DNA of 58,324 nucleotides, filler included, from Basidiobolus ranarum (taxonomy: Eukaryota): the NCBI GenBank assembly GCA_040143965.1. It is 7 parts of 7 records of this genome, joined end to end, with 100 filler letters (N's around TTAATTAATTAA, not from the genome) between each part and the next. Parts side by side here need not be neighbours in the genome. Positions count along the whole stretch, not along the records: positions 25,075 to 33,326 come from JASJQH010007870.1; 6 more parts are not named here. One strand, written 5' to 3'. How positions within the stretch are numbered: position 1 is the stretch's first letter; each line of letters opens with the position of its first letter. Below the pieces are notes generated by a model, which was given only the letters and a program-made list of their open reading frames with translations, did not search any database and was not told the origin of the DNA. This document shows, piece by piece, positions 8,263 to 50,101 of this stretch. Made by a program: the position numbers and the translations under genes.

Positions 8263-8362
8263 NNNNNNNNNNNNNNNNNNNNNNNNNNNNNNNNNNNNNN
8301 NNNNNNTTAATTAATTAANNNNNNNNNNNNNNNNNNNNNNNNNNNNNNNNNNNNNNNNNNNN
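8263..8362. other. Artificial contig spacer
   Basis: 44 N + TTAATTAATTAA (stops in all six frames) + 44 N. Confidence 0.99.
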
Positions 8363-16621: not shown

Positions 16622-16721
16622 NNNNNNNNNNNNNNNNNNNNNNNNNNNNNNNNNNNNNNNNNNNNTTAATTAATTAANNNNNNNNNNNNNNNNNNNNNNN
16701 NNNNNNNNNNNNNNNNNNNNN
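16622..16721. other. Artificial contig spacer
   Basis: N44-TTAATTAATTAA-N44. Confidence 0.99.
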
Positions 16722-17195
16722 CGGTCGATTCCAGCAATTGGAGAATGAGAACTCGTTTTTCCAACCTGTAGAGTCTCCATATAACTTTGACACCGGTGAT
16801 GTGGATCAGCACTGGAGAAGGAACCATGTCTTTGATATTTTAGCCAGCGTGAATAGGGATGGCCTTCAGGCCGATATTGTCTACAGTTCAGTTCTTCATT
16901 CGGAAGATATCGTGTCACAATGGCTTCACACCTGGCAAGAGGTTCTTAACACCATGATCACTCGATGCACTCAGATGGATATTGTTGAGCATACTCGAAG
17001 CGACTTCCCTCTACTCAAACTATCAGAAACTGCCTTTAATGCGCTATACAACGATATACTTCTTCAAACTGGGGTTGATTCCAGCAATATCGAGGATATT
17101 CTACCTTGTACTCACTTACAGGAAGGTCTTATAGCTGGTATGCTCAAGTCATCCGATTACTATCATGTTCAGCAAACTTTCGACATTGTTGGCGA
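16722..17195 (+). repeat. Near-identical NRPS inter-module segment, copy 1 (pairs with ~21409-21880)
   Basis: Directly readable DNA near-identity at offset 4687 (cggtcgattccagcaattggagaatgagaac...). Confidence 0.95.
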
Positions 17196-20100
17196 ATTTG
17201 ACTTGGGAAAATTCCAAAACGCATGGAATACCGTTATCCAAGACCACCCTATTCTACACTCGATATTTGTTCAAAATTCCACGCCAAATGAGAGTAGTAT
17301 CACCTTTTATCAGGTAGCTATTAAACATTTCACTCACCAATGGACACAGTTCAACTGCTCTGAGGCATCCCTGGAAGCAACCATCAACCAGTGTCTGGAC
17401 ACCGATAAAAGTAAATTCTTCAACTTTGGTGAGCCTAATATGAGATTAGCTCTAATTGAAACCGACACGAACAAACGTGTATTCATAGTCAGTTGGCACC
17501 ATGCAATTCTGGATGCGACCTCATGGAAAATTGTTCTACAAGATATCCATGCAGTTTATAATTACCACCCTCGTCCAAAAACGTATCCATTCAAGGACTT
17601 TGTATCAGATTTACTTGACCATACACAAAATTTTATTACGGAAGAGCAGGATTATTGGATGAGCAAGTTCTCGCAGCTTAATATTGAGCCGTTCCCGAAA
17701 CTTGAGGCCTCCGAACAATCGGAATCCGGGATGATTCGCATTTCTGACGCAATAGAACTATCCATCCAGACCATCGAGCAGTTTGCTCGACTTTCGAAGG
17801 TGACAATTTTCACTCTGATTAAAGCTGCATGGGCCATGCTTTTGAGGGAGTACACCCAGTGTGAGGATGTCGCCTTTGGTTACACGATTAGTGGAAGAAA
17901 TAGCGAGCTTGTAGGAATATCTTCCATAGTCGGTCCCTGCATTAACACATTACCATGTCATATACATTTTGAAGGCCAGGTCACTGTAGGTGAATGGCTT
18001 CAGAATGCCCATAGCGACTATATCTCATCTCTCTCCTATCAACAAAGCAGTTTACGTGATATCCAGGGTTGCGTAGGAATATCACCACTTATCGATACTC
18101 TACTCGACTACAAAAATGAACTCACGACCAAGAGTGAAAGTGATACTATAAAGCCACCTGGCATTAGAGCTGATACTTTGGTACTTATACCAATAGCTGG
18201 AGATGAGAAAACAGAGGTATTTAACAATTTAAATGTGACTAAAATGTTGGCTAAGAGCAAACTAAATGGTATTGCGAATATATTTTCGAATTGGTGATTA
18301 ATCGTTCACATAGTATCCACTAGGTATATTTATCGAATCTGATGATCATAATCTAACATACACTGTGACTATAAGTAGAAAGTTAGCTACAATACCTCAT
18401 GCCGAGAGGCTATCCCGTTGCTTCAAGATTCTATTTGAAAGTCTAGTAAGCTCGACATTGGATGCAAAACTTGAGACTATTAAGATCGGTCTGAACGAAG
18501 GACGTGAATCATTTAGTAATTCATCGAGCTCTATGGATGTAAATACAACATATCTTCATCATACATTTGAGAAGCAGGCGGATCTTCACCCAGACAATTT
18601 AGCAGTACAGTTTAAAAATTCTGAATACGTCACTTACGGTGAACTTAATCGCAGGGCAAATAAGTTAGCTCATCATCTGAATGAGCTTGGTGTTCGGCCC
18701 GAGTCGATGGTGCCACTCTGCCTCGAAAAGTCGGTTTCCATGATAGTTGCAATGCTCGCGGTCCTCAAAGCAGGAGGAGCCTATGTTCCGTTTGATCCAA
18801 ACTATCCAGTGGAACGAAACCTTTTCATCCTCAACGAGACGAAGGCCAAGATAGTAATCACACTCGAAAAATACAAGGAACGATTTGGTAACAACCATTT
18901 AGTGCTCCTAGATATTGATGAAGATGTTATTCAACAAAAGGCAGATGACAACCTTCAAACAAACGGGCTCACTCCCTTAAATTTATGTTACGTAATGTAT
19001 ACATCAGGCTCTACTGGTGCTCCAAAAGGTGTCATGTTGGAGCATACTGCATTAGTGAATTTTATATTCTCATTTCGTAAGATGTGGAATCTCACCAAAC
19101 ACGATTTAGTCTTACAATTCACCAACTATACCTTCGATGTATCCATTATGGATATATTTGGCACACTTGCATCTGGAGCTTGTGTTGCAATGGCTTCAGA
19201 GGAGGACTTGCGCACGAATCTAGAGGAAATTATCAACACGATGGATATAACCTCCCTAGTACTGACTCCAACAGTTGTTTCATTTATTGATCCGTCGAAA
19301 GTGCCATCTGTAAAAAGGTTATTACTGGCAGGTGAAATGATCACACCTACTGTTCGAAATGCATGGTTGCCGTATGTTGACTTTTTCAACGCCTACGGTC
19401 CAACTGAAGCCTCTGTTATAGTATCGGTGAACATCCTCCTGGACGAACAAAGCTCATGTAGTAATATTGGATTGCCAATAGGAAATAACGAGATGTGTAT
19501 CTTAGGCCTTGATATGTACCCAGTCCCAGTAGGAGTTGTAGGTGAACTGTGTATCAGTGGTCCTCAACTCGCCCGTGGCTATCTCAACCGTCCCGATCTT
19601 ACAGATAAAGCCTTCGTGTCGAATGATCAAGCTGGTGGTACACGCTTTTATCGCACTGGTGACTTAGCTCGCTTCAACTCTGACGGATCAGTGGAACTGA
19701 TTGGCCGGAAGGACAACCAGATCAAACTTAATGGTTTGCGAATTGAGTTGGATGAGATAGAGCATGCTCTTTGTGGTCACTCAAAAGTAACAAGAGCTTG
19801 TGTACTTCCTTTAATCACTGATCAATCTACAAACCGGAAGTCTTTGGTTGCGTTTCTAGGATTCTCTGATATCATGAATGACAATCACTCTCTGAGGCTA
19901 CTATCTGGATCATGTGCTGAAGTGGCAGTAGTACACATGGAAGAGTTGAAAAATCAGGTAAGGAAACGACTCCCATCATATATGGTACCAAATATATGGG
20001 TTCCCCTTGGTTCAATTCCAATCAACACAAGTGGAAAGATTGATCGTAAACGACTAGCTACTTTCTTCGAGTCTTTGAGCTTAGAGGATGTCATAGGCTT

Positions 20101-23100
20101 ATCAATTGGTTCAAGAGAGCAAGATACTACTTCCTTTACTCCTCTGGAAAAAATGTTGCAAAACATTTGGTCTGAAATTCTTAATATCTCCGCATCTAGT
20201 ATAAACATAGATGATTCATTCTATCAATTGGGCGGAGATTCTATCACGGCCATTCGAGTGTCTTCCTCAATTGGTCAACATGGATTTACGCTTTCTGTGA
20301 GGCAAATCATGCAGAATCCTACCATCCGTGCACAAGCCTCGGCTGCCATCCTAGTAGCAACAACTGCTTTGGAATCTCCCAAGATTGCCCTTGATGAAGT
20401 ATCGCTCACTCCTGTTCTGAAGCATTTCTTAGATACACCTCAGGATAACGTGCATCACTTCAATCAGTCCTGGCTGCTCAAACTGAGAGATTCAATAACA
20501 CAAGGCAGTTTGGAAGTGGCCATTTCATCCTTAATGCAACATCATGAATTACTACGCAGCCGCTTTGTCTATTCTGGAGATCAGTGGAAAATCAAAATAC
20601 TGTCAATCGAACAAGTACAATACAAGATTCATCACACCAAGATTGACTCTCTCGATGAAATGAAAGAACACATTCATAAACTCCAACAAAGCCTCAATCT
20701 AGTCTCAGGCCCCGTTTTCCAAGTATCGATGTATGACCTTAATGACGGAAATCAGTTGCTGTTCATGACCGGCCACCGTTTCGTCATTGATCTCGTGTCG
20801 TGGCGAATTATTTGGGAAGATCTTGAGCAACTTCTTCAAGGAAAAGAATATGGTTACAAGTCGATGTCTTTCATGCAATGGAGTTCCATGTTGGATGATT
20901 ATGCTCAAAGCTTAGATATGGAAGTGTGGCCAGTTCAGGAAGTGTCCCAACCACTAATCACGGATTTGTCACTCCTAGAGCAGAACACAATGCAATCAGC
21001 CAAATCCGTATCTTTCACTTTGACACCTCTGAAGACTGAGCAACTATTCAGTCAGGCTAACATTCCCTTCCAGACGGAAGCTACAGATCTGATGATCTCC
21101 TCACTCGTCATTGCTTATTGCTCAGTGTTCAACTCGAGTAGCATGACTATTGGCTTGGAAGGACATGGTCGAGAACCTTGGCGTGAAGACATTGATATTT
21201 CAAGAACGGTTGGTTGGTTTACCACTCTGTATCCAATGGTCGTGAATGTTCAGCAAACGGACGATCTTTTGACAATTTTGAAACGTGTCAAGGATATGAG
21301 GAAGCTTATCCCAGGCAATGGAATTGTTTACGGGCTCCTTCGTGATCTGAACAGAAGTCAAGAGAATCCTCTGAAAGATGATATTATCCAAATTGGATTT
21401 AACTATACCGGTCGATTCCAGCAATTGGAGAATGAGAACTCGTTTTTCCAACCTGTAGAGTCTCCATATAACTTTGACACCGGTGATGTGGATCAGCACT
21501 GGAGAAGGAACCATGTCTTCGACATTTTAACCAGAGTGAATCAGGATGGCCTTCAGGCCAATATTGTCTACAGTTCAGTTCTTCACTCGGAAGATATCGT
21601 GTCACAATGGCTTTACACCTGGCAAGAGGTTCTTAACACCATGATCACTCGATGCACTCAGATGGATATTGTTGAGCATACTCGAAGCGACTTCCCTCTA
21701 CTCAAACTCTCAGAATCTGCCTTTGATGTGCTATACAATGATATACTTCTTCAAACTGGGGTTGATTCCAGCAATATCGAGGATATTCTACCTTGTACTC
21801 ACCTGCAGGAAGGCCTTATAGCTGGTATGCTCAAGTCATCCGATTACTATCATGTTCAGCAAACATTCGATATTGTTGGTGATTTCGACTGGGTGAAATT
21901 CGAGAATGCTTGGCAAACTGTCGTCCAAGACCACCCTATTCTACACTCAGTTTTTGTTCAAAACTCTGTGATAGATGATAGTAGTATCACTTTCTTCCAA
22001 GTAGCTATTAGAGATTACATTCAACAATGGTCACGAATTACCTGCTCCGAAGAATCCATGGAAGACATGGTATGTAAATATTTCGCTGACGATAGTGAAA
22101 AGTATTTCAATCTAGGCCAACCGAATATGAGATTAGCATTGCTAGAAACGGAAACAGGTAAGCGTGTATTGTGTATCAGTTGGCATCATGCGATTCTTGA
22201 TGCCACTTCGTGGAAGATAGTTTTGGAAGATATCTGCACAGTTTACAGTCAACAACCGCGTCCAAAAACCTATCCGTTCAAAAATTTTGTAGCAAGTTTA
22301 CATAATCGCACATCCGCCTTTATTGTTGAAGAGAAAGCCTACTGGATGAAGAAGTTTTCACAGCTGGATATTACATCATTCCCCAAACTAGAGACTTTGA
22401 ATCAAGTGGACCTGGGAATGATTCTTCTTTCTGGAGTGATAGAATTGCCATTACAGCTAATAGCAGGATTTGCCCGACAATGGAAAGTGACCGTTTTCAC
22501 TATCATCAAGGCTGTTTGGGCTTTACTTCTAAGAGAGTATATCCAGAATGATGATGTTGTCTTTGGTTACACGATCAATGGAAGAAATGGTGAGCTAGAA
22601 GGCGTCTCCTCCATGATCGGACCCTGTATCAACACATTACCATGTTATATTCGTTATGAAAGCCAATCCACTATAGGTGAATGGCTTCAGAGCATTCATA
22701 GCGACTACAATACTTCGCTATCTTATCAACAAAGCAGTTTACGTGATATTCAGAGTTGGACTGGAATATCACCACTTTTTGATACTCTACTCGACTACAA
22801 GGTTAACTCTGAGACTGAGAAGAATACGCTCAATACTTTGGAAATTATTCCACTAAGCGGTGATGGAAGCGTAGAGGTATTTGAATGCTTATATATTCTA
22901 AATATGATTGCATTGCTTTAACCATGTATTTCAAACGTGTACTTAATCAATTTTCCAGTATCCACTAGGTTTAGCCGTTGAATCAAACAGCGATGAACTA
23001 TCTTACAGTATCATGATTGATAGAAATTTAGCTACCATGAAGCATGCGCAGAAACTATCGAGTAACTTCAAGAATCTATTCGAAAGTCTAGTGAGCTCCA

Positions 23101-24974
23101 CTACCGATGCAAGACTTGACACTCTAAATATTGGTTGGGATGAAGACCTTGAACTCTTTAGCCATTCATCGAGCTCGACTGACTTCCAGGGAGTAAATGA
23201 AATATGCCTTCATCGTATTTTGGAGGAGCAAGCAGACCTTCACCCAGACAATTTAGCAGTGAAGTTTAAAGATTCCGAATATGTCACTTACGGAGAACTT
23301 AATCGAAGGGCCAATCAATTGGCTCATCATTTGATCGAACTTGGCATTCGCCCCGAGTCCATGGTGCCACTCTGCCTTGAAAAGTCGGTTTCCATGATAG
23401 TTGCAATACTCGCTGTGCTTAAAGCTGGTGGCGCCTATGTTCCGCTTGATCCAAACAATCCCGTGGAACGAAACCTCTTTATTCTCAATGAGACGAAGGC
23501 CGAGGTCGTGGTGACATTTGACCAATACAAGCATAATTTCGATGGACAGCATTTGGTACTTCTTGATATTATCGGCGAAGTGATCGAACAACAGATGGAA
23601 GCTAATCCCATGGTGCAGGGCCTTACCCCCTCTAATTTATGCTATATCTTGTATACGTCAGGCTCAACAGGTACTCCCAAAGGTATCATGATGGAGCACT
23701 CTGGTGTCGTGAGCTATATGAAAGGATTGCGTAAAGTGTGGAATATAACCTCACATGACACAGTCTTACAATTCTCTAACTACACCTTTGACATGTCTGT
23801 GACGGAAATGTTTGGAACATTTGCAGTTGGGGGCTCAGTTGCTCTTGCTTCCAAGGAGGACTTACTCTCCAACCTAGAAGAAATGATCAACATGATGGGT
23901 GTGACGGCACTGGCAATTACTCCGACAATCGCTACTTTCATTGATCCGTTAAAGGTACCATCAGTAAACAGATTGGTGCTCGGAGGTGAAATGTTCACCA
24001 CCAATGTTCTGAACAAATGGCTACCATATGTTGAGCTATCCAACGGCTACGGTCCTACTGAAGCAGCTGTGGTTATATTGGTGAACTGTCCGATGAACAA
24101 ACAAACTTCATGCGACAATATAGGAAAACCAATTGGAAACAACAAAATATATATCTTAAACAATGACCTGCGTCCAGTACCCCTTGGGGTGGCTGGGGAA
24201 TTGTGCGTCAGCGGTCCTCAACTCGCCCGTGGTTATCTTAATCGACCAGACCTCACTGATAAGGCCTTTGTGTCGAGTCCTTTTGCAGCTGGTGAGCGTT
24301 TATATCGTACTGGAGATTTGGCTTATTTCAATTCCGATGGATCAGTAGAATTGATTGGACGTAAAGACAACCAGATCAAGCTTAATGGTTTGCGTATCGA
24401 GTTGGATGAGATTGAGCATGTTATTTGTGATCTGTCAAAAGTAGCAAGAGCTTGTGTACTTCCTTTAATCACTGACCAATCTACAAATCGTAAATCATTG
24501 GTTGCATTTTTAACGTTTTGTGATATCACCGATGACAACATTTCATTGGAGGTACTGTCTGGTTCTAGGGCAGAAGTTGCGGCAGTATACATAAAGGAGC
24601 TAAAGAAACAGGTTAAGGCACAACTCCCATCATATATGGTGCCAAATATATGGGTTCCCCTTGGTTCAATCCCAATCAACACAAGTGGGAAGATTGACCG
24701 TAAAAGACTGGCTACTTTCTTCGAGTCGTTGAGTCTAGAGGCAGTCATAGGTTTGAAAAATGGCGGTATGTCTGAACAAGACACCTCTTCTTTAACTGCA
24801 CCCGAACAAATGATACAAAGCATCTGGTCGCAGATTCTGAATATCTCCGCGTCTAGCATTAGTATCGACGATTCATTCTATCAGCTAGGTGGTGATTCGA
24901 TTTCAGCCATTCGTGTATCATCTTCAAGTCGCCAAAATGGATTTTCACTTTCTGTGAAGCAGATCATGCAGAAT
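16722..24974 (+). CDS. Nonribosomal peptide synthetase, internal fragment open at both ends: [E C-term]-C-A-T-E-C-A-T; introns 18217-18313 and 22877-22958
   Basis: C motif WHHAILD x2; A motifs YTSGSTGxPKG, YGPTE, YRTGDL, SGKIDRK x2; T motif LGGDSI x2; E motifs LEGHGRE, SRTVGWFT, FNYTG. Two phase-0 GT-AG introns join the three ORFs in frame (E|YPLG). Confidence 0.96.
21409..21880 (+). repeat. Near-identical NRPS inter-module segment, copy 2
   Basis: Matches 16722-17195 with few substitutions. Confidence 0.95.
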
Positions 24975-25074
24975 NNNNNNNNNNNNNNNNNNNNNNNNNN
25001 NNNNNNNNNNNNNNNNNNTTAATTAATTAANNNNNNNNNNNNNNNNNNNNNNNNNNNNNNNNNNNNNNNNNNNN
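24975..25074. other. Artificial contig spacer
   Basis: N44-TTAATTAATTAA-N44. Confidence 0.99.
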
Positions 25075-25428
25075 TCCTTGAATGAAATCTTCGAGAAGAA
25101 CCCCTTGAAGATCAAGACTTTCGGTATCTGGCTTCGTTATGACTCCCGTTCCGGTACTCACAATATGTACAAGGAATACCGTGAGTTGACCAGAAACGAT
25201 GCTGTTGAGGCTTGTTATCAAGATATGGCTGCTCGTCACCGTGCCCGCTTCAGATCCATCCAAATTATCCGTGTTGCTGAAGTCGCTAACGCTGATGTTC
25301 GTCGTCCTTACATCAAGCAGCTTATGGTTCCCAAGCTTCGTTTCCCTCTTCCTCACCGTGTTGCTCGCCCAGCCAACAAGGCCAACCGCAGCCTCTTCAT
25401 TGCCAAGCGTCCTTCCACTTTCTATTAA
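25075..25428 (+). CDS. RPL20: 60S ribosomal protein eL20 (L20/L18a), 3' part
   Basis: [43 protein letters not shown]; strong codon bias. Confidence 0.97.
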
Positions 25429-25990
25429 ATTGCTTAGATATGTTGTCATGGTGCTTGGTCGGTATTGTGACATTTTCAATAAACAGACTTGTCTTCTACC
25501 ATTTTCCCAACATAACAGTTTTACTACCAATATGATTTTATTGAAGATATCCATTTCTAGTTCCTTTTACATCAAACCAAGCTTTGTTCCAAGATCTGAG
25601 TGACACATACTCCTCATGGTTGTTAAAATCCATTTTTAGGGTTAGGTCTGGATTTCATTGTTCAAGCTATCACAGACATTGCGGTGAGGAATTCGCTAGC
25701 TTTGTCATATGAACGTCATTGCGGCAAGTGTGATTATAAATTGATTTCATTTGAATAGTAATAAGGTTAGTAAACAAGTTAAACGGGTTAGTTTTATCAG
25801 CTGAGCAACTTAGATATTTATTCGTCCGATAAATGAAAGAATCTACGGATCAGTGGTGGATTTGAAATAAATTCCAAATAATCACTGAACATCTATTATT
25901 AGCAAATCTGCAAGAAAATCCCACTTTTTCGCTTCAAGATGAAAGGAGAAATATGGACTTTTGGATTATTTTTAGCCCCAATAAGGAAAT

Positions 25991-26402
25991 ATCTGATTAC
26001 TTTTATCCGAGCAAATTATCTGATCAATTCTATATTCATTATTGATTTTATATCATCATTTCCTATTTAATCTATTTTGATCAAAATCTGATAAAAATTC
26101 TCGTCTGATTTATCTGATGGACATGATGTTACTAGAGAATTGTAATCAGATCCTAGTAATTCTTTCAAACATTTATTTGATGTTCATCTGTATTATGTGG
26201 TTGAGTTTGAATTATCAGATTTGGAGATTGCATAAATTTAGTACCACCATCATAAGTGGCAACTTATCAGATTCTTTAGATAGTAGAACTTGATTGGTGA
26301 TGAAAAAAAGAGAACCAGAGTCTGATTGTCTGTATGTAGCCATCGCATGGCTCCAAATAGAAATCTATTCCGTATTTCCAAACCTAGCAACTTCTATCAG
26401 AT
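25991..26402. promoter_or_regulatory. Cluster of ATCWGATAA (SreA/Urbs1/Fep1-type iron-responsive GATA) sites upstream of the PCS-like gene
   Basis: Perfect sites at 26016-26024, 26086-26094, 26110-26118, 26212-26220, 26264-26272; one-mismatch sites at 25991, 26143, 26394; TATATAA at 26448-26454. Confidence 0.8.
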
Positions 26403-26562
26403 TAAATTTATCAACACTAGTATTGGGGGCTAGATTGGGTCCTAAAGTATATAAGCAGGAGGGAATTCCTTTAGGCGATACATTCACATAGCTAGTTCTC
26501 TTATTCTTCATAGACATCACACCTCCCAGCATACATAGAAACTATCCGAAACTTACAATACG

Positions 26563-27742
26563 ATGCAGAGTGTTCAATTAACCATGGGAAATTTGGGACG
26601 TGTATCCCGAAATCATATTCTTTCGACCATCTCTCAACCAGCCAAAAAGCAGTTTCTTCGACATATGGTATCGAAAACTAATAACGTACATGCCACCGCC
26701 TTAAATCATATCCCTTTGGATGTTGAACAAACACCTAGTTCTTTTAAACTACCATGTCGTGGTGAATACAATGTTCTACTAAATACCTTCTATCGTCAAC
26801 AACTCCCCCCATGTTTGACTTCTTTCACATCCGAGGAAGGAAAAAGGATATTCAAAGAGAGTTTGTGTCAAGGATATGCTGAAGGTTACTTCAATTTGGT
26901 CGGAAACTTTACTACTCAATCGGAGCCTTCTTGTAAGTGAATTTTGGGTTTTAGTTAACCCGTCGATAGTCATATATTAATGATTTTGGATTTCTTAGAT
27001 TGTGGCCCTAGTTCACTGGCTATGGTTTTGAATGCCATGGAGATTGACCCAAAGAAATGTTGGAAAGGCAATTGGAGATGGTTAGTTGCTATATATTGAG
27101 ATTATTACTACATTGATGATTTACCTAGTTCGATATATTAGGTACAGTGAGGAGTTGTTGGAAGGGTTTGATCCCATCAGGCAGTATGGTGTTAATGATT
27201 TGGAGTTTCTAGGTAAATAGTGTTTTGAACTGCATACGTTCATGAACAGTTATTGATAATTTACTTCATATAGAATTGGCAAAAAGGCACTGTCATGTTG
27301 AGGCCAAGTCAACTAAGGACGTAACACTGCAGGAGTTCATTGAAGACCTCAAACGAGTGTGTTCTAGTGGCACTGAGCATATTGTCATTTCATTTTCCCG
27401 TCGAGGATTCGATCAAGCTGGAGAAGGTCATTTCTCACCAATTGGAGGATACAATGCTGATCGTCAGCAAGCTTTAGTGATGGATGTAGCTAGGTAAATA
27501 TTGTCAGTTCAGTTTCATGGTATTCACGAATGGTAATTGACATTTTATCGAATTCCTTTAGATCCAAATATCCTAGTTACTATACCTCTGCAGAACGTAT
27601 TTACAAATCAATGAGTGAGATTGACAAAAGTACAGGTCAACCTCGTGGCTATTTCATCTTAAAATCCAATAGAGATGCTTCTATAGGGAATCATTTGCAT
27701 CAAGAGATTCCTTATATTGCACCTGAAGCCCTCGTTATGTAA
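26563..27742 (+). CDS. PCS: Phytochelatin synthase-like protein, catalytic domain only; exons 26563-26932, 26999-27080, 27142-27212, 27274-27493, 27562-27742 (307 aa)
   Basis: [18 protein letters not shown] (Cys), [17 protein letters not shown] (His), MDVAR (Asp), KYP, PRGY. Four GT-AG introns give a 924-nt in-frame CDS. Confidence 0.93.
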
Positions 27743-27956
27743 ATCCTCCCACTTGTAAATTACCCCAAATGTAATATCTGCCTTGTTCCATAGCCTAATC
27801 ATAATCTTGTACATCGTTTGCACCAATAAATTCTAGTTTTAAGAAAGCAACGCTTATTTAATATTGTTTGAGTTACATGAAGAACTGCATCGGAATTAGA
27901 GGAAATAGACAGCAATACCAAAAATTCAAGCTAATCTTGAATAGAAACCTAGAAAT

Positions 27957-29503
27957 TTAATCCTTAGCATGCATATCAACAGAAGGGTAGTATTGTGCAT
28001 ATTTCCTCAGAATCTCTTCCAGTTCAGCTTTTTGTTCGATCAAATTGGGTGTTAGTTCATCGTAGACATCTTCAAACATTTCTTTAACTGCAGGTTTCTT
28101 GAGTTTTTCTGCACTGCCGAATGATTTCAATATTTTGGTGCGAATATTATGACGAAAGTTTTTCTCCCTTTCCTCGTCCCACCATCCTTTATGTTCAAGG
28201 TATTTACGCATACGAGTCAATGGATTATCCGTTCGTTGCCAATTCTCCACTTCTTTTTTCGACCGATAAGCAGAGGAATCATCGGAGGTACTATGATGTC
28301 CTATGCGATAGGTCATAGCTTCAATTAAAACTGGTTGATGTTCTTCAACTGCAAGTCTTCTAGCTTCTTTGGTAGCATTATAAACAGCCCAAACATCGTT
28401 ACCATCCACACGAATGGTGTGCATACCATAACCAATACCTCTACTAGCAATACCATCACCACGATACTGATCAGAAGTAGGAGTAGAGATAGCAAATCCA
28501 TTATTACGACAAAAGAAGATCACTGGACATTGCATAGTAGATGCCATATTCAAAGCGGCATGGAAATCACCCTCACTAGCAGCTCCGTCACCAAAATAGC
28601 ACATAACACAGTTCTTTTTACCCTCTATTTTAAGGGCGTAAGCAGCACCTGCGGCATGTGGGATTTGAGTGGCCAAGGGAGAGGATATAGTATGGAAATT
28701 ATGCTTAGTAGAACCATAATGTACGGGCATTTGACGACCTTTACCAAAATCCAGTTCATTACTATAACATTGATTCATAAATTCGTCAAAAGTGAAGCCA
28801 CGATAAAGTAGAACTCCGCTTTCACGATACTAATATAAATATATGTATATATATATTAGTGATTATGATGGATTGAATTCAGTTGATGATAGTCACTAAC
28901 CTGACCGAATACGACATCCTCTTTATCAAGACCAGCAGCACTACCAATGTATGCTTCTTCACCATAACTTGTCATATAAAAACTTATACGTCCTTGACGT
29001 TGAGCTTCATAAAGAATCAAATCCATGATATTTAATGAGATCATATCCTCATAAATCTTCACTGCAAACTCTTTGGAGACCTAAGATTTCACTGGATAAG
29101 AGTGAGAGTAATAATGGTAAAGTGGTTACTTTAACTAACCTTGGGATCTTGAGAAGGGTCAAGGATATTACCGTCAGCATCCATGACGTGATAGGTGGGT
29201 ATAGCTTCACCTTTACCAAGGAAGTTCATTTCTTGGGTAAAATAAGAATCAGAGGCTCCAGGGAAGGGAACCTTCTTACGAAGAGCCTGACTAATAGCAG
29301 AGCGAGTTGAATTCTATGAATAATTTAGAAATAGACGTCAAAAAACATGTCACCATCTCTAACGAGAAAGGTGGAATATTGAAGCTGTTGAAAAGAGTAT
29401 CTACCTGTCGAGTAATAACTGAACCAAATATTACTGGTGTATGCTTTTTTAGAGCAATCTTGGTGTTAGAAGGTATAAAGCGACGTGCGATAAGTCCAAG
29501 CAT
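27957..29503 (-). CDS. BCKDHA: 2-oxoisovalerate (branched-chain keto acid) dehydrogenase E1 alpha, mitochondrial, multi-exon
   Basis: [28 protein letters not shown] motif [23 protein letters not shown]; basic presequence [11 protein letters not shown]. Confidence 0.96.
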
Positions 29504-30275
29504 AGTGGTTGGATTCTAATGAGGTGATGTAGACAATGAAAAGTATAGACGAAAGGGGTTGTTGAAGAGAGGTTTGAAGGATATATGTGATTGAGTGACT
29601 TGGTTTGGGCTCTAGCTACAACTGGGTGTGGGAAGTGGTGCGTGACTATGTTTTACTAACCATGTGACCCTGGGAGCATTAACTTGTTCTCCCCTAGAAT
29701 TAAGCCATCACAGCATATTTACACGACAGATAAACAGGAGATCATTGACTTTATTGATAAATTTGAATGTGGATTGATTTCAACTGAATATTTCTACACA
29801 ACTTACTGCCATAAATGCCATCCATTTGAAGTTAACGTCACCAAGCTATCAACGATTGTATATATACAATTGGATGATGGATCAAGTAGAACAACACAAG
29901 TACCAGTTTACCGTGAGAAAAATCCAATGGTATCGAAATTCTCTTGACAACCGGTCAAACAATTTGTTAGGTGAATTTTATGTCATTAATGTTTTATAAA
30001 AGTAACATGATTCTTAAGGCGGATATTTCATGATATTGAATTCACTTTTAGTTTTTAGGCATGCACAATTGATTCGAATATTTCTATAACTTTGAAACAA
30101 CTCTCCAAGTCAATGGAATTTAAGAGTGTTAAGAAAAATAAGACGAAATAAAGCAGTCAAATGATATTCAAATAAAATGGAGAAAATGAATATAATATAT
30201 TGTAAAATAAGTGTGCTTCACAAAGCTACATTTCTAGATAAAAATAAAACAAAGTATATGCAGTATTAGAAAATA

Positions 30276-31391
30276 TCAAAGCAGAACTAAAAGTTTTTGC
30301 ATAAGCAATACTATGACAACAGCTACGGCGCCACCCATCATAGCACTGTCGAAGTTGAATTTGGAAGAATTCGTTGGATGAGCGTGTAAACCAAAAGAGT
30401 TGGGTACATCAGAGCCATCTTTAGCATAGTACTTAGCAAAGAAATCATTTTGTAACCAAAGAACCTTGTTAAAAGCCAAGATAACTCTTAATTCATGTTC
30501 TCTCTCGAGCTTCAGGGTAGTGACGGCCCAAATCAAAGTTGATTCGACGAAACCAAGAAGAGCAGAGATGTGAATGTATTCAACGTTGATTTTGGACTTC
30601 TTTCCGGGGATGTCGGTATGGATCTTAGCAACCCAGTCCAGATATTTGATCATACGTTCATCATAGGGGTTGTTCAATAGACGGCCAATATAGCGCGTCA
30701 ACATATCCTTACGATACTTGATCTGCGAGCTGTTTACATCAAGTTCACGAATATCCTCGACAACTTTTCCTGCGAAACCCTCGTGACGAGCAGCCATAGT
30801 CTGCCAAGTAATATCGAATGTTTTAAGTTTGTCATAAACAGCGTCGACTAAAACTGCACCAAGAGGAGCGAGTTGCTCGGAAACGGATTTGATAGCCTCG
30901 ACATCTTTCTCGGCGAAGTCCACGAATTTGGCGACATATTGATAACGATATACTGGATCCGTATGAACCAGTAAACGGTCTACGTGTTCTATAGTCAGCT
31001 CTTTATGTGCAGATTTTTCCTCTTTGCGACCAGCAGCATCATCGCAAGCAACCTTAGCCACTGTAATTACTTTGGCGACCATTTCTTCGGATACATTCAA
31101 ATCACGTAGAGCTTTACTAAGATCATCGACTACAGCGTCGAAATGCTCGTCTTTGAGGTTGAGATGGCGATGAGCAATGTTCATCTTCTCACCATTATTG
31201 GCTGGGCCACCGAGAGAAAAGGCCAAGGATTTTGTCAGTATGATACGTTGTTTTTCCATATCAACGCCAACAAAGAATTGTTTAATTCGGACATCATTCA
31301 AAACGTATTTGCTGTAGAATAGATCTATAACTTGGGAGATGGTTTCTTCACCACCAAGTGTTTGATAAAGGGATTTTTCAATGGTAGACAT
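30276..31391 (-). CDS. Intronless two-globin fusion: group I truncated (2/2) haemoglobin + protoglobin/sensor-type globin + C-terminal TM segment (371 aa)
   Basis: N-domain SLYQTLGG...FY...FF.GVDMEKQ...LGGP...AHRHL...EHFDAV. Second domain FVDF...LVDAVYDKL...YLDWVAKIH...VEYIH...AFNKVLWLQNDFF. Hydrophobic tail. Minus-strand TATATAA at 31442-31448 supports the ATG at 31391. Confidence 0.88.
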   Translation of the reverse strand: MSTIEKSLYQTLGGEETISQVIDLFYSKYVLNDVRIKQFFVGVDMEKQRIILTKSLAFSLGGPANNGEKMNIAHRHLNLKDEHFDAVVDDLSKALRDLNVSEEMVAKVITVAKVACDDAAGRKEEKSAHKELTIEHVDRLLVHTDPVYRYQYVAKFVDFAEKDVEAIKSVSEQLAPLGAVLVDAVYDKLKTFDITWQTMAARHEGFAGKVVEDIRELDVNSSQIKYRKDMLTRYIGRLLNNPYDERMIKYLDWVAKIHTDIPGKKSKINVEYIHISALLGFVESTLIWAVTTLKLEREHELRVILAFNKVLWLQNDFFAKYYAKDGSDVPNSFGLHAHPTNSSKFNFDSAMMGGAVAVVIVLLMQKLLVLL

Positions 31392-31615
31392 GTTGATTGA
31401 GGAGATTTTTGATAATGCTATTAAGCCTAGGCATCTCTTTATTATATACTCCACATTTCCCTAGTCTCTACGATAATAGCAAATATAACGTATCTGGAAA
31501 TGTTAACTCTATTTGGTATTAGAGCCAATCAATATAGGCCCGATGAATAATCAAGGGCAAATATGGTTCTTAGTTTGGACAAAAATGTTATTAACCAAGC
31601 GAATACTCATTAAAT

Positions 31616-31663
31616 TGGCAGTAATTCTGGCAGTAATTCTGGCAGTAATTCTGGCAGTAATTC
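31616..31663. repeat. Tandem repeat, 4 x 12 bp (TGGCAGTAATTC)
   Basis: Four exact copies. Confidence 0.97.
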
Positions 31664-31852
31664 GCATATTCAAATCAAGAACATTAGAGGAAATCGCAAT
31701 TACAAATGCTCGCTTGTCACATGACTGGACTACTGCTGTAAATCTGATAACACTCATGGTTGTTACCAAATATGTTCACGATTTGATATTACACTCCCGA
31801 TCTCCTACCAAACCCACTGTAGAACCCACTATAGCATTCATTTCTCAAATGT

Positions 31853-31938
31853 ATCTCACTATTTCTATGTTTAACGCATCTCACTATTTCTATGTTTAAC
31901 GCATCTCACTATTTCTATGTTTAACGCATCTCACTATT
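31853..31938. repeat. Tandem repeat, ~3.4 x 25 bp (ATCTCACTATTTCTATGTTTAACGC)
   Basis: Three exact copies plus a partial, no spacers. Confidence 0.97.
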
Positions 31939-32203
31939 ACAATATACAATAGTATGGATGTTGTCATCAATATGTGTTTATATACGTATTCTTTGTGACA
32001 TCACCACGAATCGTTTAATTGTATTCTTTCTTGTCATGCACTGAGTCAGAGAGACACCATTGACTCACGATAGTGATTTGAGCTATATAAGTCACCATCC
32101 TCAGCAAGAGCTCAGCCATCAAGCCAGAATGACTATTTTAATCCAATCCACCAGAGCAACCCTTCGCGCTTATAATAAGACACCTTTGATATGTCTAAAT
32201 AAA

Positions 32204-32455
32204 ATGACCACTACAGGGTATGGAAATCAAGACTCAGATTGCAAAAAGGAACAGGAGAAGAATGAAAAGCATTCCTCAAAAAAGGAACAAGAAAAGAATG
32301 AAAATCATTCCCCACCTACTGAAAGTCATCCCTCATCTACCAAAAGTTCCGTACAAACTCCTATCAGCTCCGATGTAGGTGGATCGAATAAACTTCCAAA
32401 ATCTACTGAAGATGTTGAGAATTCTGTTCGTAAGAATGTTGCCCATGAAGATTAA
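32204..32455 (+). CDS. Possible small hydrophilic/disordered protein (83 aa)
   Basis: AAAATG start, upstream TATATAA near 32084, duplicated KKEQEKNE peptide; no recognisable domain. Confidence 0.35.
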   Translation: MTTTGYGNQDSDCKKEQEKNEKHSSKKEQEKNENHSPPTESHPSSTKSSVQTPISSDVGGSNKLPKSTEDVENSVRKNVAHED

Positions 32456-32880
32456 TAAATGATGTCAATTCCAATCCCTGAATAATATCTAATGACGTTG
32501 AAGTTACGAATGATTTATGACTGTGGCTATGACCGTGATCGTGACTCCAAATTCAATTTCCTTCTTAAATATATAACTGAGGAACACTTCCACCACACCA
32601 ATGAGATCACTTTCCCTACTTACAATATGTCTCTTCATACTTTGTTTACTTCTCGTTCTTAAACTAAAAAGTCAGGGAAAACTACTTGAGCCCGAGTATA
32701 ATACGGGTTTAGTTAGGAAAACCCCGACTAAGCTCATACAGCATAGAAGCAATCACTGGATATTTAAAACATGAATTAAAATTATTTTATTTATATTCGA
32801 TAAATTACGTTGTTATATATCAATCAAACAGATTCATGTAGATGCCTTAGTAATTAATTAGAAACCTGGGGCCATGTCAT

Positions 32881-33326
32881 TTATACTTCCAATATCTGGC
32901 CTTCAATCAATTTCTTAAAAGGATGAGAAATCAACTTCTCATAAGTGTCCATTTCTGCGATTTGCCCATTCTCAAGACAGATCACAACGTCCGAATTCTT
33001 GAGCGTAGAAAGACGATGAGCAATGGTAATAACGGTACGATTACAAGTTAGTCGATCCAAAGCCTCTTGAACCAACTTTTCATTCTCACTATCCAAGGCA
33101 CTGGTAGCCTCATCCAGAATCAACAAGATCGGATCACACAGCAGTGCTCTAGCAATAGCGATTCTATCGCGGAATCAAGAAAATTTAATAAAAAACCAGA
33201 AAACTAATCACCATCATAATCTAACTACCTTTGTTTTTGACCGCCACTTAAAGCAACACCTCGTTCTCCAACGTAAGTATCTAAACCCTCTGGGAATTCT
33301 TCGATGAACCCACAATTGGCAATTTT
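32881..33326 (-). CDS. ABCB-family (Mdl1/ABCB10-like) transporter, 3' end of nucleotide-binding domain; intron 33228-33164
   Basis: [38 protein letters not shown]. Confidence 0.9.
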
Positions 33327-33426
33327 NNNNNNNNNNNNNNNNNNNNNNNNNNNNNNNNNNNNNNNNNNNNTTAATTAATTAANNNNNNNNNNNNNNNNNN
33401 NNNNNNNNNNNNNNNNNNNNNNNNNN
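33327..33426. other. Artificial contig spacer
   Basis: N44-TTAATTAATTAA-N44. Confidence 0.99.
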
Positions 33427-37900: not shown

Positions 37901-38149
37901 AGTAAAAAGGGTTTGGTAAAATGTCATTGTATTTGCTTAAATTGGACTAAGTTTAACAAGGGAGATACCTCTGTGCTTACACTTAAACTGATGGTGCAGA
38001 TGAGTAATAACTCATGTATTGAATACTAATCTAATTACTAAAGCAGGATCTAGATTCTTCATAGTTGGGTGGCACAGTAGTGGGCTAAGACATCCTGGAA
38101 TGGCACAGCAATTAGTTGTTTCATGTTGGGGTGTTGCAGTCAATATGAT

Positions 38150-40490
38150 CCGATAAGCCACTGGTTGCTCCATATAGATCTCTTCTTTTAGATTTCCATT
38201 CAGAAAGGCTATTTTTACATCCATATGTTGGAAATTAAGTTGATGTGCAGCTGAGGGTGCCAGGATTGCTCTAGTAAAGCTAAACATGGCTACTGGAGCA
38301 AAAGTTTTATCAAAATCAATCCTAGAGTCTGCAATTCACATGTTGCAACAAATCTTGCTTTGTATCTTTCCATGGTTGCTTCAGCTTGGTTTTTGAATTT
38401 GCAGACCATTTGTAACCAATTGGCTTTCTCCCCAATAGTACCAGACTGAGAACCAATGCTTTACTTTCCTACAGTGATGAAAGCTCATTTGATGTTGCTT
38501 TTTCCCAAAATTATGAAACTGGACACTCCAGGGCTTGATCTAGAGTCTGTGGCCCATCACAGAATGTGGCATAAGCATAGACATTATCATTGGAAGTATC
38601 CCATCAGTTCCCTGGCTTATTCCTCTTTCAGAATGATATTCTAGGTCCTGAACAATCCACTGCTGTAATTAGGGTTTAAATTTTGGTTGAACATGGCTCA
38701 AATTCAGCTGGAATTTTGTCAGACATTTCATGAATAGTGCTGATTTTGTTTTCTGTATCAAGAACTGTGCTTTGAGGTGAAAATTGCTTTTTCAACAAAA
38801 ATCACATCTCTGCACTTAACTTACTTCTGATATTTAGTATCATACAGTCTGTAGGCTTTAGATCAATCACAGAAACCAAGAAATATACGTTTTCTGCTTT
38901 TGGGTTCCAATTGAGAGCTTTTATGAGGTGGAATTAGCCAATATGCCATACAACTGAAGAGTCTGTGATCACCCAGACTTAGATTTGATTCATATAGGGC
39001 TCTCAATGCAGTACAACTTTGTAGCAATCAGGTTGCACATCTGTTTTTGATATAGACTGCAGTGGAAGCAGATTCACCTCAGTATTGGTAATATAACATT
39101 ACATAAAGTAACATTGAATCTGCCATCTCCACTATGTGCCTATTAGTGCATTCTGCAACTCCATTTTGCTGTGGGGTACAAGGTACAGTTCTTTCTTGCA
39201 TAATTCCATGTTTAGAACAAAAACTAGTAAAATCTTTGGAGTGTCAATCTCCACCATTTTCACTTGTTAGTATTCATATTTTTTGTACTCATTATTTATC
39301 TACCATTGCTTTGTATTGCTTGAATGCAGCCAAGGCTTTAGATTTTCATTTGAGAAAGAATACCCAAGTGGATCTTGTTTAGTTTCTTTTCCAGCAATCT
39401 TGTAATAAATGGCCTGGTTTCTTATAATACTTTCAGATAATGCAATTCCTATAAGGGTTACCATTATTAAAGTCTGTTGGAAGTTTTACAGCTCCAAAGA
39501 CTGCCTGATCTGTATTATTTTGCCAAGAATCATATCTTGTTGCTTCCTTATTCAAAAACATAGCACCAACATACTCCAGTGATAATGGCTCTGATGTTGA
39601 TTCTAGGGCAATAATGAGGTTCCCAAGCTTGTCTGGCAGGCTCCCAAATAGTGCCATGACTAAGTAATCTTCATTTAGAGGTGCTCCAATGGATTAGAGC
39701 TGATCTGCCATAGTTTTTATGCAACTTTTATGATTAAGCATAAATTCATTTGAATTGATCTAAATTGAGAGTAATTTTTGCCCAAGCTATAGCCTATTAG
39801 CCAAACTTTCAGTTTCATATAGTCCCTCAAGTGTTTCCCAAGCAGTATGGGTGTTTTTACCATGGTGCATTTGCCTAATTGAGAGTCTCTGAGATGGAGA
39901 CAAAGCGTAGAGTGCTTTCCTCTGCTACTTGTGAAAGGTAAGGTAATCTTATGATGGTCCCTTGGTATCTATTTCTTCTCCTGTAACAAATCCCCAAAGT
40001 TCTCAGTCTTCTAGCACCATTTGCATCTTAAACTTCTAAAGATGGAAGTCATTGACATCAAACTTCTGTGTAGATGCAAAAACCTTGGTAAAAATACAAG
40101 TAGACATTTGTTTAACAGCTAGCTTGGGGATAATAACTTGATACAAGTGTTTAGGGTATATTTAAGTATTTTGGACAAGACTTGGATTTGTGAATTGGAC
40201 CCTTGAGTTTTGTTGAATTTAATATATCCTATGCATAGTTTATGACAAAATAGGACTATTGAATGTGCTCAGATCACAATAATCAAGCTTGTTAAGCATT
40301 GGTGAAACTTTGAAGTGAATTGGAGAAGTTTTGGGAAAAGCATGAAAATTGGTAAAGGTAATCAATTTGATATTTCTATCAATTGGAGCAATAAACACAC
40401 ATTTTTGAATGGCAGAATTGAGTGCTAAATAATTTGCATATGAATAAACCAACTTCTAAATAATGTGTTGCTACTTTCCTAATTTGAACA
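38150..40490 (-). mobile_element. Degenerate Ty1/copia element: LTR (~40139-40490), gag, zinc knuckle, integrase core, RT start
   Basis: KFKMQMVLED*ELWGFV, GSLPDKLGNLIIALES, CKY.KKPGH, TRSTWVFF, TPQQNGVAE, KYKARFVA, DFDKTFAPVA, HMDVKIAFLNGNLKEEIYMEQP; integrase-before-RT order. Confidence 0.9.
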
Positions 40491-40494
40491 CTAG

Positions 40495-41667: not shown

Positions 41668-41767
41668 NNNNNNNNNNNNNNNNNNNNNNNNNNNNNNNNN
41701 NNNNNNNNNNNTTAATTAATTAANNNNNNNNNNNNNNNNNNNNNNNNNNNNNNNNNNNNNNNNNNNN
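41668..41767. other. Artificial contig spacer
   Basis: N44-TTAATTAATTAA-N44. Confidence 0.99.
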
Positions 41768-50001: not shown

Positions 50002-50101
50002 NNNNNNNNNNNNNNNNNNNNNNNNNNNNNNNNNNNNNNNNNNNNTTAATTAATTAANNNNNNNNNNNNNNNNNNNNNNNNNNNNNNNNNNNNNNNNNNN
50101 N
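50002..50101. other. Artificial contig spacer
   Basis: N44-TTAATTAATTAA-N44. Confidence 0.99.

Follow-up and report, generated by a model that had tools for sequence, protein, structure and literature searches.

Our analysis identified a dense array of sites matching ATCWGATAA, the consensus of fungal iron-sensing GATA repressors, in front of a phytochelatin synthase (PCS)-like gene of Basidiobolus ranarum (K7432_012011). The array suggests, without proving it, that this gene is turned on under iron scarcity. We regard it as an even call that the array is the operator of a Basidiobolus repressor of the SreA/Fep1/Urbs1 type, which would give iron-starvation induction of K7432_012011. As a prediction of a cis-element the array is strong, and it is a promoter-motif prediction made in a draft genome. 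The novelty is modest, i.e. a new candidate within a known iron regulon.

The window, that is the whole stretch of 58,324 bases that was analysed, is made up of seven unlinked contigs that were sorted by length and joined by linkers with stops in all six frames (N44-TTAATTAATTAA-N44). The contig with the PCS-like gene and the site array spans positions 25075-33326. The genes on either side of the array and the putative promoter element are the following, with the PCS-like gene consisting of five exons that encode 307 aa:

25075..25428, plus strand: 3′ part of the gene for ribosomal protein L20/L18A (RPL20), cut by the contig start (Pfam PF01775, Ribosomal_L18A, E 2.5e-20; ORF listing)
26449..26456, plus strand: TATATAAG, likely TATA box by sequence reading, 114 bp 5′ of the PCS-like ATG
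26563..26932, plus strand: exon 1, N-terminal extension and start of the PCS domain (splice model, Pfam PF05023)
26999..27080, plus strand: exon 2, with the catalytic Cys125 (YCG) (splice model, Pfam, alignment to Alr0975)
27142..27212, plus strand: exon 3 (splice model)
27274..27493, plus strand: exon 4, with His227 (GHFSPIGGY) and Asp245 (MDVAR) (splice model, Pfam, alignment to Alr0975)
27562..27742, plus strand: exon 5 and stop codon, with no Cys-rich C-terminal domain after it (splice model, Pfam, alignment)

Between the stop codon of RPL20 (25426-25428) and the ATG of the PCS-like gene (26563) lies a spacer of ~1134 bp, and the array is located 167-572 bp 5′ of this ATG. The initial annotation had stated that only the PCS-like gene faces the region, and this was borne out, with RPL20 on the plus strand stopping at 25428 and neither a tRNA nor an Rfam RNA found in contig 25075-33326. 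We consider it very unlikely that the array is functional for a different transcript, be it a non-coding RNA or a small gene of the spacer that is not annotated, or that it acts on RPL20. While the length of the spacer (1134 bp) would favor such a transcript, the lack of tRNA and Rfam families on the contig speaks against it, as do the ORFs of the spacer, which according to the ORF listing are all short and without start-to-stop credibility. Furthermore, 588 bp separate the end of RPL20 from the first perfect site, this gene is oriented away from its own promoter, and immediately downstream of the array come the TATA box and the ATG of the PCS-like gene.

An NRPS at 16722-24974 was considered as an adjoining siderophore cluster and rejected, because it lies on a separate contig, both ends of which fall within the gene; since the window consists of seven unlinked contigs, this NRPS is not linked to the PCS-like gene. 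An ABC transporter fragment at 32884-33174 (minus strand) was considered as an HMT1/ATM1-type exporter of phytochelatin or Fe-S and was rejected by its solved relatives, the best of which are full-length ABCB1/ABCB4/STE6-type pumps (E 4e-49), with mitochondrial half-transporters scoring far lower. Among the other genes on the seven contigs there was no recognisable iron-uptake gene with a promoter for comparison with the array.

Motif, mismatch and core scans placed the following sites in the array:

25991..25999, plus strand: near-site ATCTGATTA, one mismatch, ATCWGAT core intact, overlapping ATCAGATAT on the minus strand (mismatch and core scans)
26016..26024, minus strand: perfect site ATCAGATAA, 547 bp 5′ of the ATG (motif scan)
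26086..26094, plus strand: perfect site ATCTGATAA (motif scan)
26110..26118, minus strand: perfect site ATCAGATAA (motif scan)
26143..26151, minus strand: near-site ATCTGATTA, one mismatch, core intact (mismatch and core scans)
26212..26220, minus strand: perfect site ATCTGATAA (motif scan)
26264..26272, minus strand: perfect site ATCTGATAA, 291-299 bp 5′ of the ATG (motif scan)
26394..26402, minus strand: near-site ATCTGATAG, a GATAG variant with intact core, 47 bp 5′ of the TATA box (mismatch and core scans)

Perfect ATCWGATAA sites occur exactly seven times in the 58,324-base window, and five of them fall within 257 bp (26016-26272), in agreement with the count given in the initial annotation. 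The isolated copies that it had noted at 31742 and 35286 (both plus strand) were also recovered and account for the remaining two; as the window joins unlinked contigs, the site at 35286 sits on another contig than the array. Where it had listed three one-mismatch sites, we found a close match: 12 of the 63 matches with at most one mismatch in the window lie in 25989-26404, and they come down to three independent ATCWGAT cores in addition to the perfect sites (25991, 26145 and 26396) plus one degenerate site (26173).

Across the window the seven perfect sites compare with a shuffle mean of 2.67, a count of seven being reached in 3 of 100 shuffles, and matches with at most one mismatch are not enriched (63 versus 60 expected; 39 of 100 shuffles reach 63). 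The real signal is the clustering of sites. To obtain the null for clustering, 57,724 bases were simulated 1000 times with a second-order Markov model, and the maximum number of sites per 300 bp was zero in 128 runs, one in 769, two in 102 and three in one run, compared with five observed. A Poisson estimate for five perfect sites amounts to ~8e-13 per 257-bp window, over ~225 such windows. The window has 26 palindromic ATCWGAT cores, of which eight fall in 25991-26402; the simulations gave at most four such cores in 420 bp, a value reached by 8 of the 1000 runs. When all 7-mers of the whole window were scanned without bias, only ATCAGAT/ATCTGAT had at least six non-overlapping copies in 300 bp.

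A dispersed repeat containing the motifs had been named beforehand as refuting the iron reading, and no repeat unit longer than the sites themselves was found. A dispersed or tandem repeat as origin of the sites was rejected by repeat search, TRF and the 7-mer scan, and the conserved unit is exactly the 9-mer. We likewise find it hard to credit that the cluster is without function, either as a chance product or as what decay has left of a small local duplication. The longest direct repeat in the array (25987/26014, 20 nt at 80% identity), together with several short inverted repeats that contain the motif, might be taken as remains of such an event, but four sites in 300 bp were reached in none of the 1000 simulations, no shared sequence was found in the flanks of the five perfect sites, and TRF returned only a 21-bp stretch and no tandem array.

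The motif was described as the de novo consensus for the SreA regulon in A. fumigatus, and it also fits in vivo sites at U. maydis sid1 (Urbs1) and at S. pombe str1 and fio1-fip1 (Fep1) (PMC2610380), so that the earlier assignment of ATCWGATAA as consensus of the fungal iron-GATA repressors is supported. In Table S3 of that study, 49 SreA genes average 1.96 matches per upstream region versus 0.36 genome-wide, and the variants ATCTGATTA, ATCTGATAG, ATCAGATAT and ATCTGATCA of the array are among those listed 5′ of SreA-regulated genes in its Table S2 (PMC2610380). SreA homologues (GATA Znf4/Znf8) have been reported in the early-diverging fungus Rhizopus microsporus (PMC12638772), and in silico the motif has been noted 5′ of rfs, a siderophore gene of Mucor (PMC9226013). 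The investment of Basidiobolus in capturing iron is heavy, as expanded siderophore NRPS genes and siderophore activity on CAS plates have been described for the genus (PMC7466969).

It is possible, if unlikely, that the array is bound by a nitrogen- or sulfur/amino-acid-type factor (AreA/Nit2/Gln3-like), in which case the gene would encode a glutathione-degrading peptidase induced by nitrogen or sulfur scarcity and not by iron scarcity. The spacer has 11 HGATAR cores in 1133 bp, or 9.7 per kb, which is 2.5 times the density in the window (3.8 per kb). The predicted substrate, glutathione, is a nitrogen and sulfur store, and the yeast gamma-glutamyl transpeptidase CIS2 is controlled by the GATA factors Gln3 and Gat1. 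In Rhizopus, the enrichment among targets of GATA factors was for amino-acid biosynthesis and sulfate assimilation and not for iron, and all GATA factors in the DAP-seq data bound similar regions at 20-kb resolution (PMC12638772), which together make the assignment of motifs to factors in early-diverging fungi uncertain. On the other hand, single-finger nitrogen GATA factors need HGATAR only, whereas here the full ATCW prefix is present on 6 of the 11 HGATAR cores, and therefore site selection would appear to read more than the plain GATA core. Two further sites retain ATCWGAT but lose GATAA, which together with the ATCW extension points to selection on the iron-class palindromic 9-mer.

The same palindrome might be the site of some other, perhaps lineage-specific factor, for example a dimer reading ATC/GAT half-sites, with the likeness to SreA sites being coincidental. 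This appears distinctly improbable to us. It would fit with ATCWGAT being a perfect palindrome in all eight sites while the GATAA end is missing in three of them, and with no Basidiobolus regulator having been characterised. In the source data for Rhizopus, moreover, the motifs of SreA-like factors matched the yeast Gln3 and Gzf3 matrices poorly (PMC12638772), so motifs in early-diverging fungi may deviate from expectation. However, the full 9-mer, AA included, is present at five of the eight sites, an extension for which a factor reading just the palindrome would have no need, and the one-mismatch variants equal those of proven SreA targets (PMC2610380). We retain binding by an iron-sensing GATA repressor as the preferred reading, the evidence for which consists of the identity and the density of the motif.

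The product of K7432_012011 is a true member of the PCS family, in keeping with the initial annotation, which had called the gene PCS-like. The protein of our splice model is identical to P0001. Four of the five exons matched Pfam PF05023 above the cut-off of 24.9 bits (40.3, 33.4, 69.5 and 26.7 bits) and together span profile positions 1-210, and the 23-aa exon 3 gave no match to this profile. Cys125, His227 (GHFSP) and Asp245 (MDVAR) align with the corresponding motifs of Alr0975, and the Cys/His/Asp triad is invariant in all 13 aligned fungal sequences. In the AF2 model the core has a pLDDT of mostly 75-97, with a whole-chain mean of only 64.4, and the top nine Foldseek matches in the PDB are all Alr0975 (E 5e-18 to 3e-16, TM 0.82-0.89 on target). 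The Cys-rich C-terminal metal-sensing domain (PF09328) is absent: the precomputed domains for P0001 are PF13529 and PF05023 only, the protein ends at residue 307, ~25 residues past the catalytic domain, and the alignment shows no C domain. At the other end there is a conserved, basic and acid-free extension of 55-75 aa, which looks like an organelle-targeting peptide.

Seven Basidiobolus PCS paralogues were seen (256-315 aa), all of them without the C-terminal domain. A bacterial horizontal origin of this half-size PCS was rejected, because the nearest relatives are from early-diverging fungi; outside Basidiobolus these are proteins of Mortierellaceae, Kickxellales and Mucorales with 50-55% identity. 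Judged by these sequences, the protein descends from a eukaryotic full-length PCS. B. meristosporus carries an orthologue of the gene (P0002, on a 177-kb contig). Relatives were sought by a metagenome scan with an alignment of four Basidiobolus proteins; tblastn confirmed none of its 192 pattern matches, and a scan with a degenerate DNA pattern of a 17-residue clade-specific stretch gave 0 matches.

In the preferred reading, the eight ATCWGAT-core sites of the spacer, five of them perfect, would form a candidate operator of an iron-sensing GATA repressor, SreA-type regulators being factors in which two GATA fingers flank a Cys-rich region. With ample iron, the repressor would be loaded with it, bind the array and keep the TATA-driven promoter off; with iron scarce, it would leave the array and the PCS-like gene would be transcribed. 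The 307-aa product would be a 'half' PCS that lacks the metal-sensing Cys-rich C domain, and is predicted to be a gamma-glutamylcysteine dipeptidyl transpeptidase of papain-like type with a Cys-His-Asp triad. If it acts like Alr0975 of Nostoc, the enzyme would remove glycine from glutathione or its conjugates, and it may form short gamma-Glu-Cys peptides. The most economical purpose would be the buffering of non-iron metals that enter via low-specificity iron uptake during starvation, or a remodelling of the glutathione pool. An 'undescribed thiol-peptide arm of iron homeostasis', as had been suggested for this gene, is speculation, and the gene may have a plainer role. It would be a long shot to assume that one of four truncated Basidiobolus PCS paralogues has been recruited as a working part of iron homeostasis, beyond collateral metal protection, by converting glutathione to gamma-Glu-Cys species that alter the build or sensing of glutathione-ligated Fe-S clusters, or by providing cysteine-derived building blocks for the acquired bacterial-type cysteine-using siderophore synthetases of the genus.

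Canonical PCSs are described as constitutively expressed and metal-activated, and form (gamma-Glu-Cys)n-Gly from glutathione upon this activation. PCSs are treated as detoxification enzymes of this kind, and an iron-repressed paralogue would, if true, be the first link of the family to the fungal iron regulon. It would also offer a concrete gene for testing the role of glutathione-derived peptides in iron starvation, and would carry the ATCWGATAA/SreA logic, which to date has been shown in Dikarya only, over to Zoopagomycota, in a genus known for its unusual siderophore-gene expansion. Our literature search found no paper linking phytochelatin synthase to SreA, Fep1 or iron starvation in fungi, and a search on phytochelatin synthase and Basidiobolus returned nothing relevant. 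In the iron/copper arrays of S. pombe the PCS transcript was not measurable (PMC1929147).

Among known systems, the target promoters of SreA, Fep1 and Urbs1 carry a 9-bp consensus identical to that of the Basidiobolus array and have the tolerated variants ATCTGATTA, ATCAGATAG, ATCAGATCA and ATCTGATAT in common with it, and in both cases the sites lie on both strands a few hundred bp 5′ of the ATG (PMC2610380). The Basidiobolus array is denser, with five perfect and three near-sites in ~410 bp compared to the SreA average of 1.96 matches per upstream region (PMC2610380). The A. fumigatus SreA regulon comprises siderophore and reductive iron-uptake genes, and a PCS-family enzyme is not a known member. 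Basidiobolus is a zoopagomycete, for which the regulator and the regulon are both putative.

On the protein side, the closest parallel is the 'primitive' half-size PCS Alr0975 of Nostoc sp. PCC 7120 (NsPCS; PDB 2BTW, 2BU3, 6TH5, 6THO), which like the K7432_012011 protein has a single catalytic domain and no Cys-rich C domain. The triads align (phmmer E 4e-19) and the predicted fold matches (Foldseek E 5e-18), but identity is only 24-26% and the fungal protein adds the N-terminal extension of 55-75 aa. Canonical eukaryotic PCSs (PF05023 plus PF09328), such as the ~460-540-aa proteins of Rhizopus, Mortierella and Spizellomyces, share the N-terminal catalytic domain, in which 57 columns, the triad included, are invariant across the 13 aligned sequences. 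They differ by the C-terminal domain, which none of the seven Basidiobolus paralogues seen has. Iron regulons with non-iron members are found in yeast, where COT1 is controlled by Aft1 and the glutathione exchanger GEX1 by Aft2. The concept is the same, in that an iron-starvation regulon also turns on metal-buffering or glutathione-handling functions, although the regulators belong to the Aft and not the GATA family and the proteins are different.

Our analysis confirmed a dense array of ATCWGATAA sites in the spacer between RPL20 and a gene resembling phytochelatin synthase (PCS). The window holds seven perfect sites, and a motif search bore out the initial annotation that five of them lie within 26016-26272 and that isolated copies occur at 31742 and 35286. 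The three extra one-mismatch sites proposed at the same time were recovered as cores at 25991, 26143 and 26394.

ATCWGATAA-type sites in the window
26016 (-), perfect site of the array
26086 (+), perfect site of the array
26110 (-), perfect site of the array
26212 (-), perfect site of the array
26264 (-), perfect site of the array
25991 and 26143, near-site ATCTGATTA
26394, near-site ATCTGATAG
26173, degenerate site
31742, isolated perfect site on the contig of the array
35286, isolated perfect site on another contig

The total of seven is only mildly above shuffle expectation (mean 2.67; seven or more in 3 of 100 shuffles), and what stands out as extreme is the clustering of the sites rather than their number. 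Across 1000 simulations with a second-order Markov model (57,724 bases each), the maximum per 300 bp was 0 sites in 128 runs, 1 in 769, 2 in 102 and 3 in a single run, against five observed. Eight of the 26 copies of the palindromic core ATCWGAT fall within 25991-26402; no simulation exceeded four per 420 bp, and only 8 of the 1000 runs had as many. Among all 7-mers scanned in the window, ATCAGAT/ATCTGAT alone had at least six non-overlapping copies per 300 bp. Matches with at most one mismatch are at chance level window-wide (63 vs 60 expected), and the 12 of these 63 located at 25989-26404 resolve to three extra independent cores and one degenerate site. A repeat origin of the sites, which the initial annotation had itself raised as an objection, was rejected: the sequences flanking the perfect sites have nothing in common, no direct repeat in the array region exceeds 20 nt (80% identity), and a 21-base stretch is all that TRF reported there. 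Each site is thus a separate copy of a 9-bp word and no fragment of a repeat. The array observation is statistically very strong, and we regard an array without function as very improbable.

The ATCW extension is present in six of the 11 HGATAR cores in the spacer, and two other sites have kept ATCWGAT and lost GATAA, which speaks for selection on the extended palindrome rather than on the plain GATA core. This extended word presumably reflects a two-finger GATA protein, and the two-finger GATA proteins known in fungi are the iron class. That an unknown reader recognizes the ATCWGAT palindrome instead appears rather improbable.

As initially annotated, RPL20 ends upstream of the array (+ strand, truncated by the contig start, stop at 25428; Pfam Ribosomal_L18A, E 2.5e-20), 588 bp before the first perfect site. 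The next gene is the PCS-like one, with TATATAAG at 26449 preceding its ATG at 26563 and the array sites 167-572 bp upstream of this ATG. Neither a tRNA nor an Rfam family was detected in the spacer, whose ORFs are all short; that the array serves another transcript is very unlikely.

Exons of the PCS-like gene (splice model)
26563-26932, exon 1
26999-27080, exon 2
27142-27212, exon 3
27274-27493, exon 4
27562-27742, exon 5

The introns are GT-AG (61-68 bp), and the five-exon model yields a 307-aa protein (P0001) identical to the hypothetical protein K7432_012011 of Basidiobolus ranarum. The assignment to PCS held, since four of five exons each scored above the Phytochelatin synthase cut-off of Pfam (PF05023) on their own, the Cys/His/Asp motifs are kept and the predicted fold is that of Alr0975, the half-size PCS of Nostoc. 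Alr0975 was the sole phmmer match among solved structures (E 4e-19). YC125G, GH227FSP and MD245VAR of P0001 pair with its active-site motifs in the alignment, and Cys125, His227 and Asp245 do not vary across the 13 fungal homologues aligned. The AlphaFold model has a mean pLDDT of 64.4 (core mostly 75-97, residues 1-75 and 287-307 below 50), and its nine best Foldseek matches were all Alr0975 (E 5e-18 to 3e-16, TM 0.82-0.89 on target). In contrast to canonical eukaryotic PCS, P0001 has no Cys-rich C-terminal domain; K7432_012011 is a genuine but truncated PCS-family enzyme. Residues 1-75 (26563-26787) form an N-terminal extension rich in R/K/S/T, with the first acidic residue not before position 53 (47 in P0002 and 41 in P0003). 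It is kept among paralogues with an RHMVSKTN motif (P0001, P0002, P0003, P0012, P0100) and looks like an organelle (mitochondrial) targeting peptide.

Of 569 candidates in a homologue search with P0001, 290 proteins reached E <=0.001; 120 are listed. Among these matches, the nearest relatives outside Basidiobolus were PCS of Mortierellaceae, Kickxellales and Mucorales (~50-55% identity), and a bacterial import of the gene was rejected on this basis. The PCS family of Basidiobolus is expanded, the listed matches comprising four paralogues in B. ranarum (P0001, P0003, P0010, P0012) and at least three in B. meristosporus (P0002, P0004, P0011), of 256-315 aa and in two clades. All of them are devoid of a long Cys-rich C domain, and one clade has a short C-terminal SCGxxCGSxGSCH tail. 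A short PCS-domain paralogue of Lichtheimia hyalospora (P0006, 264 aa) has lost the catalytic Cys, with MLGG in place of YCG, and its activity is probably lost or altered.

The window of 58,324 bases consists of seven pieces (8262, 8259, 8253, 8252, 8241, 8234 and 8223 bases), which are draft-assembly contigs in decreasing size order and no single chromosome stretch. Between them lie six linkers, each N44-TTAATTAATTAA-N44, with stops in all six frames.

Linkers
8263-8362
16622-16721
24975-25074
33327-33426
41668-41767
50002-50101

Adjacency across linkers is therefore not genomic and is uninformative on linkage. The array and the PCS-like gene lie on the fourth piece (25075-33326), where Pfam matches further downstream mark a 2-oxoacid dehydrogenase E1 gene in convergent orientation, a gene fusing Bac_globin and Protoglobin, and an ABC transporter 3′ end. 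The globin ORF (30279-31391, -) is free of introns; in it a truncated globin of bacterial-like type (PF01152) is joined to a protoglobin domain (PF11563). Its first ATG has the isolated ATCTGATAA at 31742 about 350 bp upstream; one ATCWGATAA site per contig is within chance (~0.3 expected). Two tandem repeats, both 100% matching, occupy the upstream spacer of the globin gene (31616-31663, 12-bp unit x4.0; 31853-31938, 25-bp unit x3.4). The ABC fragment (32884-33326, -) is cut by the contig end, and an ATM1/HMT1 type was rejected, as the nucleotide-binding domain most resembles that of full-length exporters of the ABCB1/ABCB4/STE6 type. Most of the contig that carries the isolated site at 35286 is copia-type retroelement-like sequence, with stop-interrupted RVT_2, gag and Pol beta-barrel fragments at 38015-41041 (-). 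NRPS reading frames (16723-24974, +) fill an entire separate contig, the gene being cut at both ends, with Condensation, AMP-binding and PP-binding domains (Pfam) in the order C, then A-T-C, then A-T; two modules are near-identical. The gene possibly belongs to the siderophore-type synthetases known from Basidiobolus, for which a siderophore NRPS expansion and CAS-plate activity are reported in the excerpt of PMC7466969. Linkage to the PCS-like gene was rejected, since the NRPS is on another contig. None of the seven contigs carries an iron-uptake gene with its promoter.

The initial reading of ATCWGATAA as an iron-GATA consensus agrees with excerpts of PMC2610380, where it is the consensus of the Aspergillus fumigatus SreA regulon and is reported to fit the sites that Urbs1 (sid1) and Fep1 (str1, fio1-fip1) use in vivo. 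According to the same excerpts, 49 SreA-regulated genes have 1.96 motif matches per upstream region compared with 0.36 genome-wide (Table S3), and accepted variants include ATCTGATTA, ATCAGATAG, ATCAGATCA and ATCTGATAT (Table S2). These variants recur in the Basidiobolus array; with five perfect sites and shared variants against 1.96, the Basidiobolus promoter is thus denser than the average proven SreA target in this source. For early-diverging fungi the excerpted literature gives only hints of iron GATA control, namely the SreA homologues GATA Znf4 and Znf8 of Rhizopus microsporus (PMC12638772), an ATCWGATAA found in silico in front of the Mucor gene rfs (PMC9226013), and siderophore-type GATA factors reported as well conserved in a fungal tree including B. 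meristosporus (PMC5311114). Alternatively, a nitrogen- or sulfur-type GATA factor might induce a glutathione-degrading enzyme, in line with the general GATA density of the spacer, the predicted substrate, and Rhizopus GATA targets enriched for amino-acid biosynthesis and sulfate assimilation in the excerpt of PMC12638772; the extended word, however, weakens this explanation, which we consider unlikely. According to the same excerpt, the regions bound were similar for every Rhizopus GATA factor at 20-kb resolution. Our literature searches on phytochelatin synthase with SreA, fungal iron starvation, Fep1 or Basidiobolus found no precedent, the Rhizopus target tables holding gene numbers only, and on the metal arrays of S. 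pombe no measurable signal is reported for the transcript of PCS (excerpt of PMC1929147).

Iron-dependent, SreA-type repression of the half-size PCS via the array, with derepression in starvation, would be the most likely mechanism, and we give it about an even chance. A putative SreA-type repressor would sit on the array under iron sufficiency and leave it upon iron starvation, and the half-size PCS would then be produced only under iron scarcity. The biochemistry of Alr0975 is the basis for expecting that the enzyme would split glycine off glutathione or glutathione conjugates, and by the same analogy it may form short gamma-Glu-Cys peptides. Beyond the presence and non-randomness of the sites, we infer every step of this iron reading, and the wiring of the PCS-like gene into an iron regulon is a prediction only, if a well-founded one. 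If true, it would mechanistically be an ordinary SreA-type promoter on an unexpected gene, and thus a new candidate member of the iron-GATA regulon. The simplest purpose of the enzyme might be protection against other metals entering via poorly selective iron-uptake routes, a logic similar to that of Aft1-controlled COT1 in yeast and of iron-deficiency-induced metal sequestration in plants.
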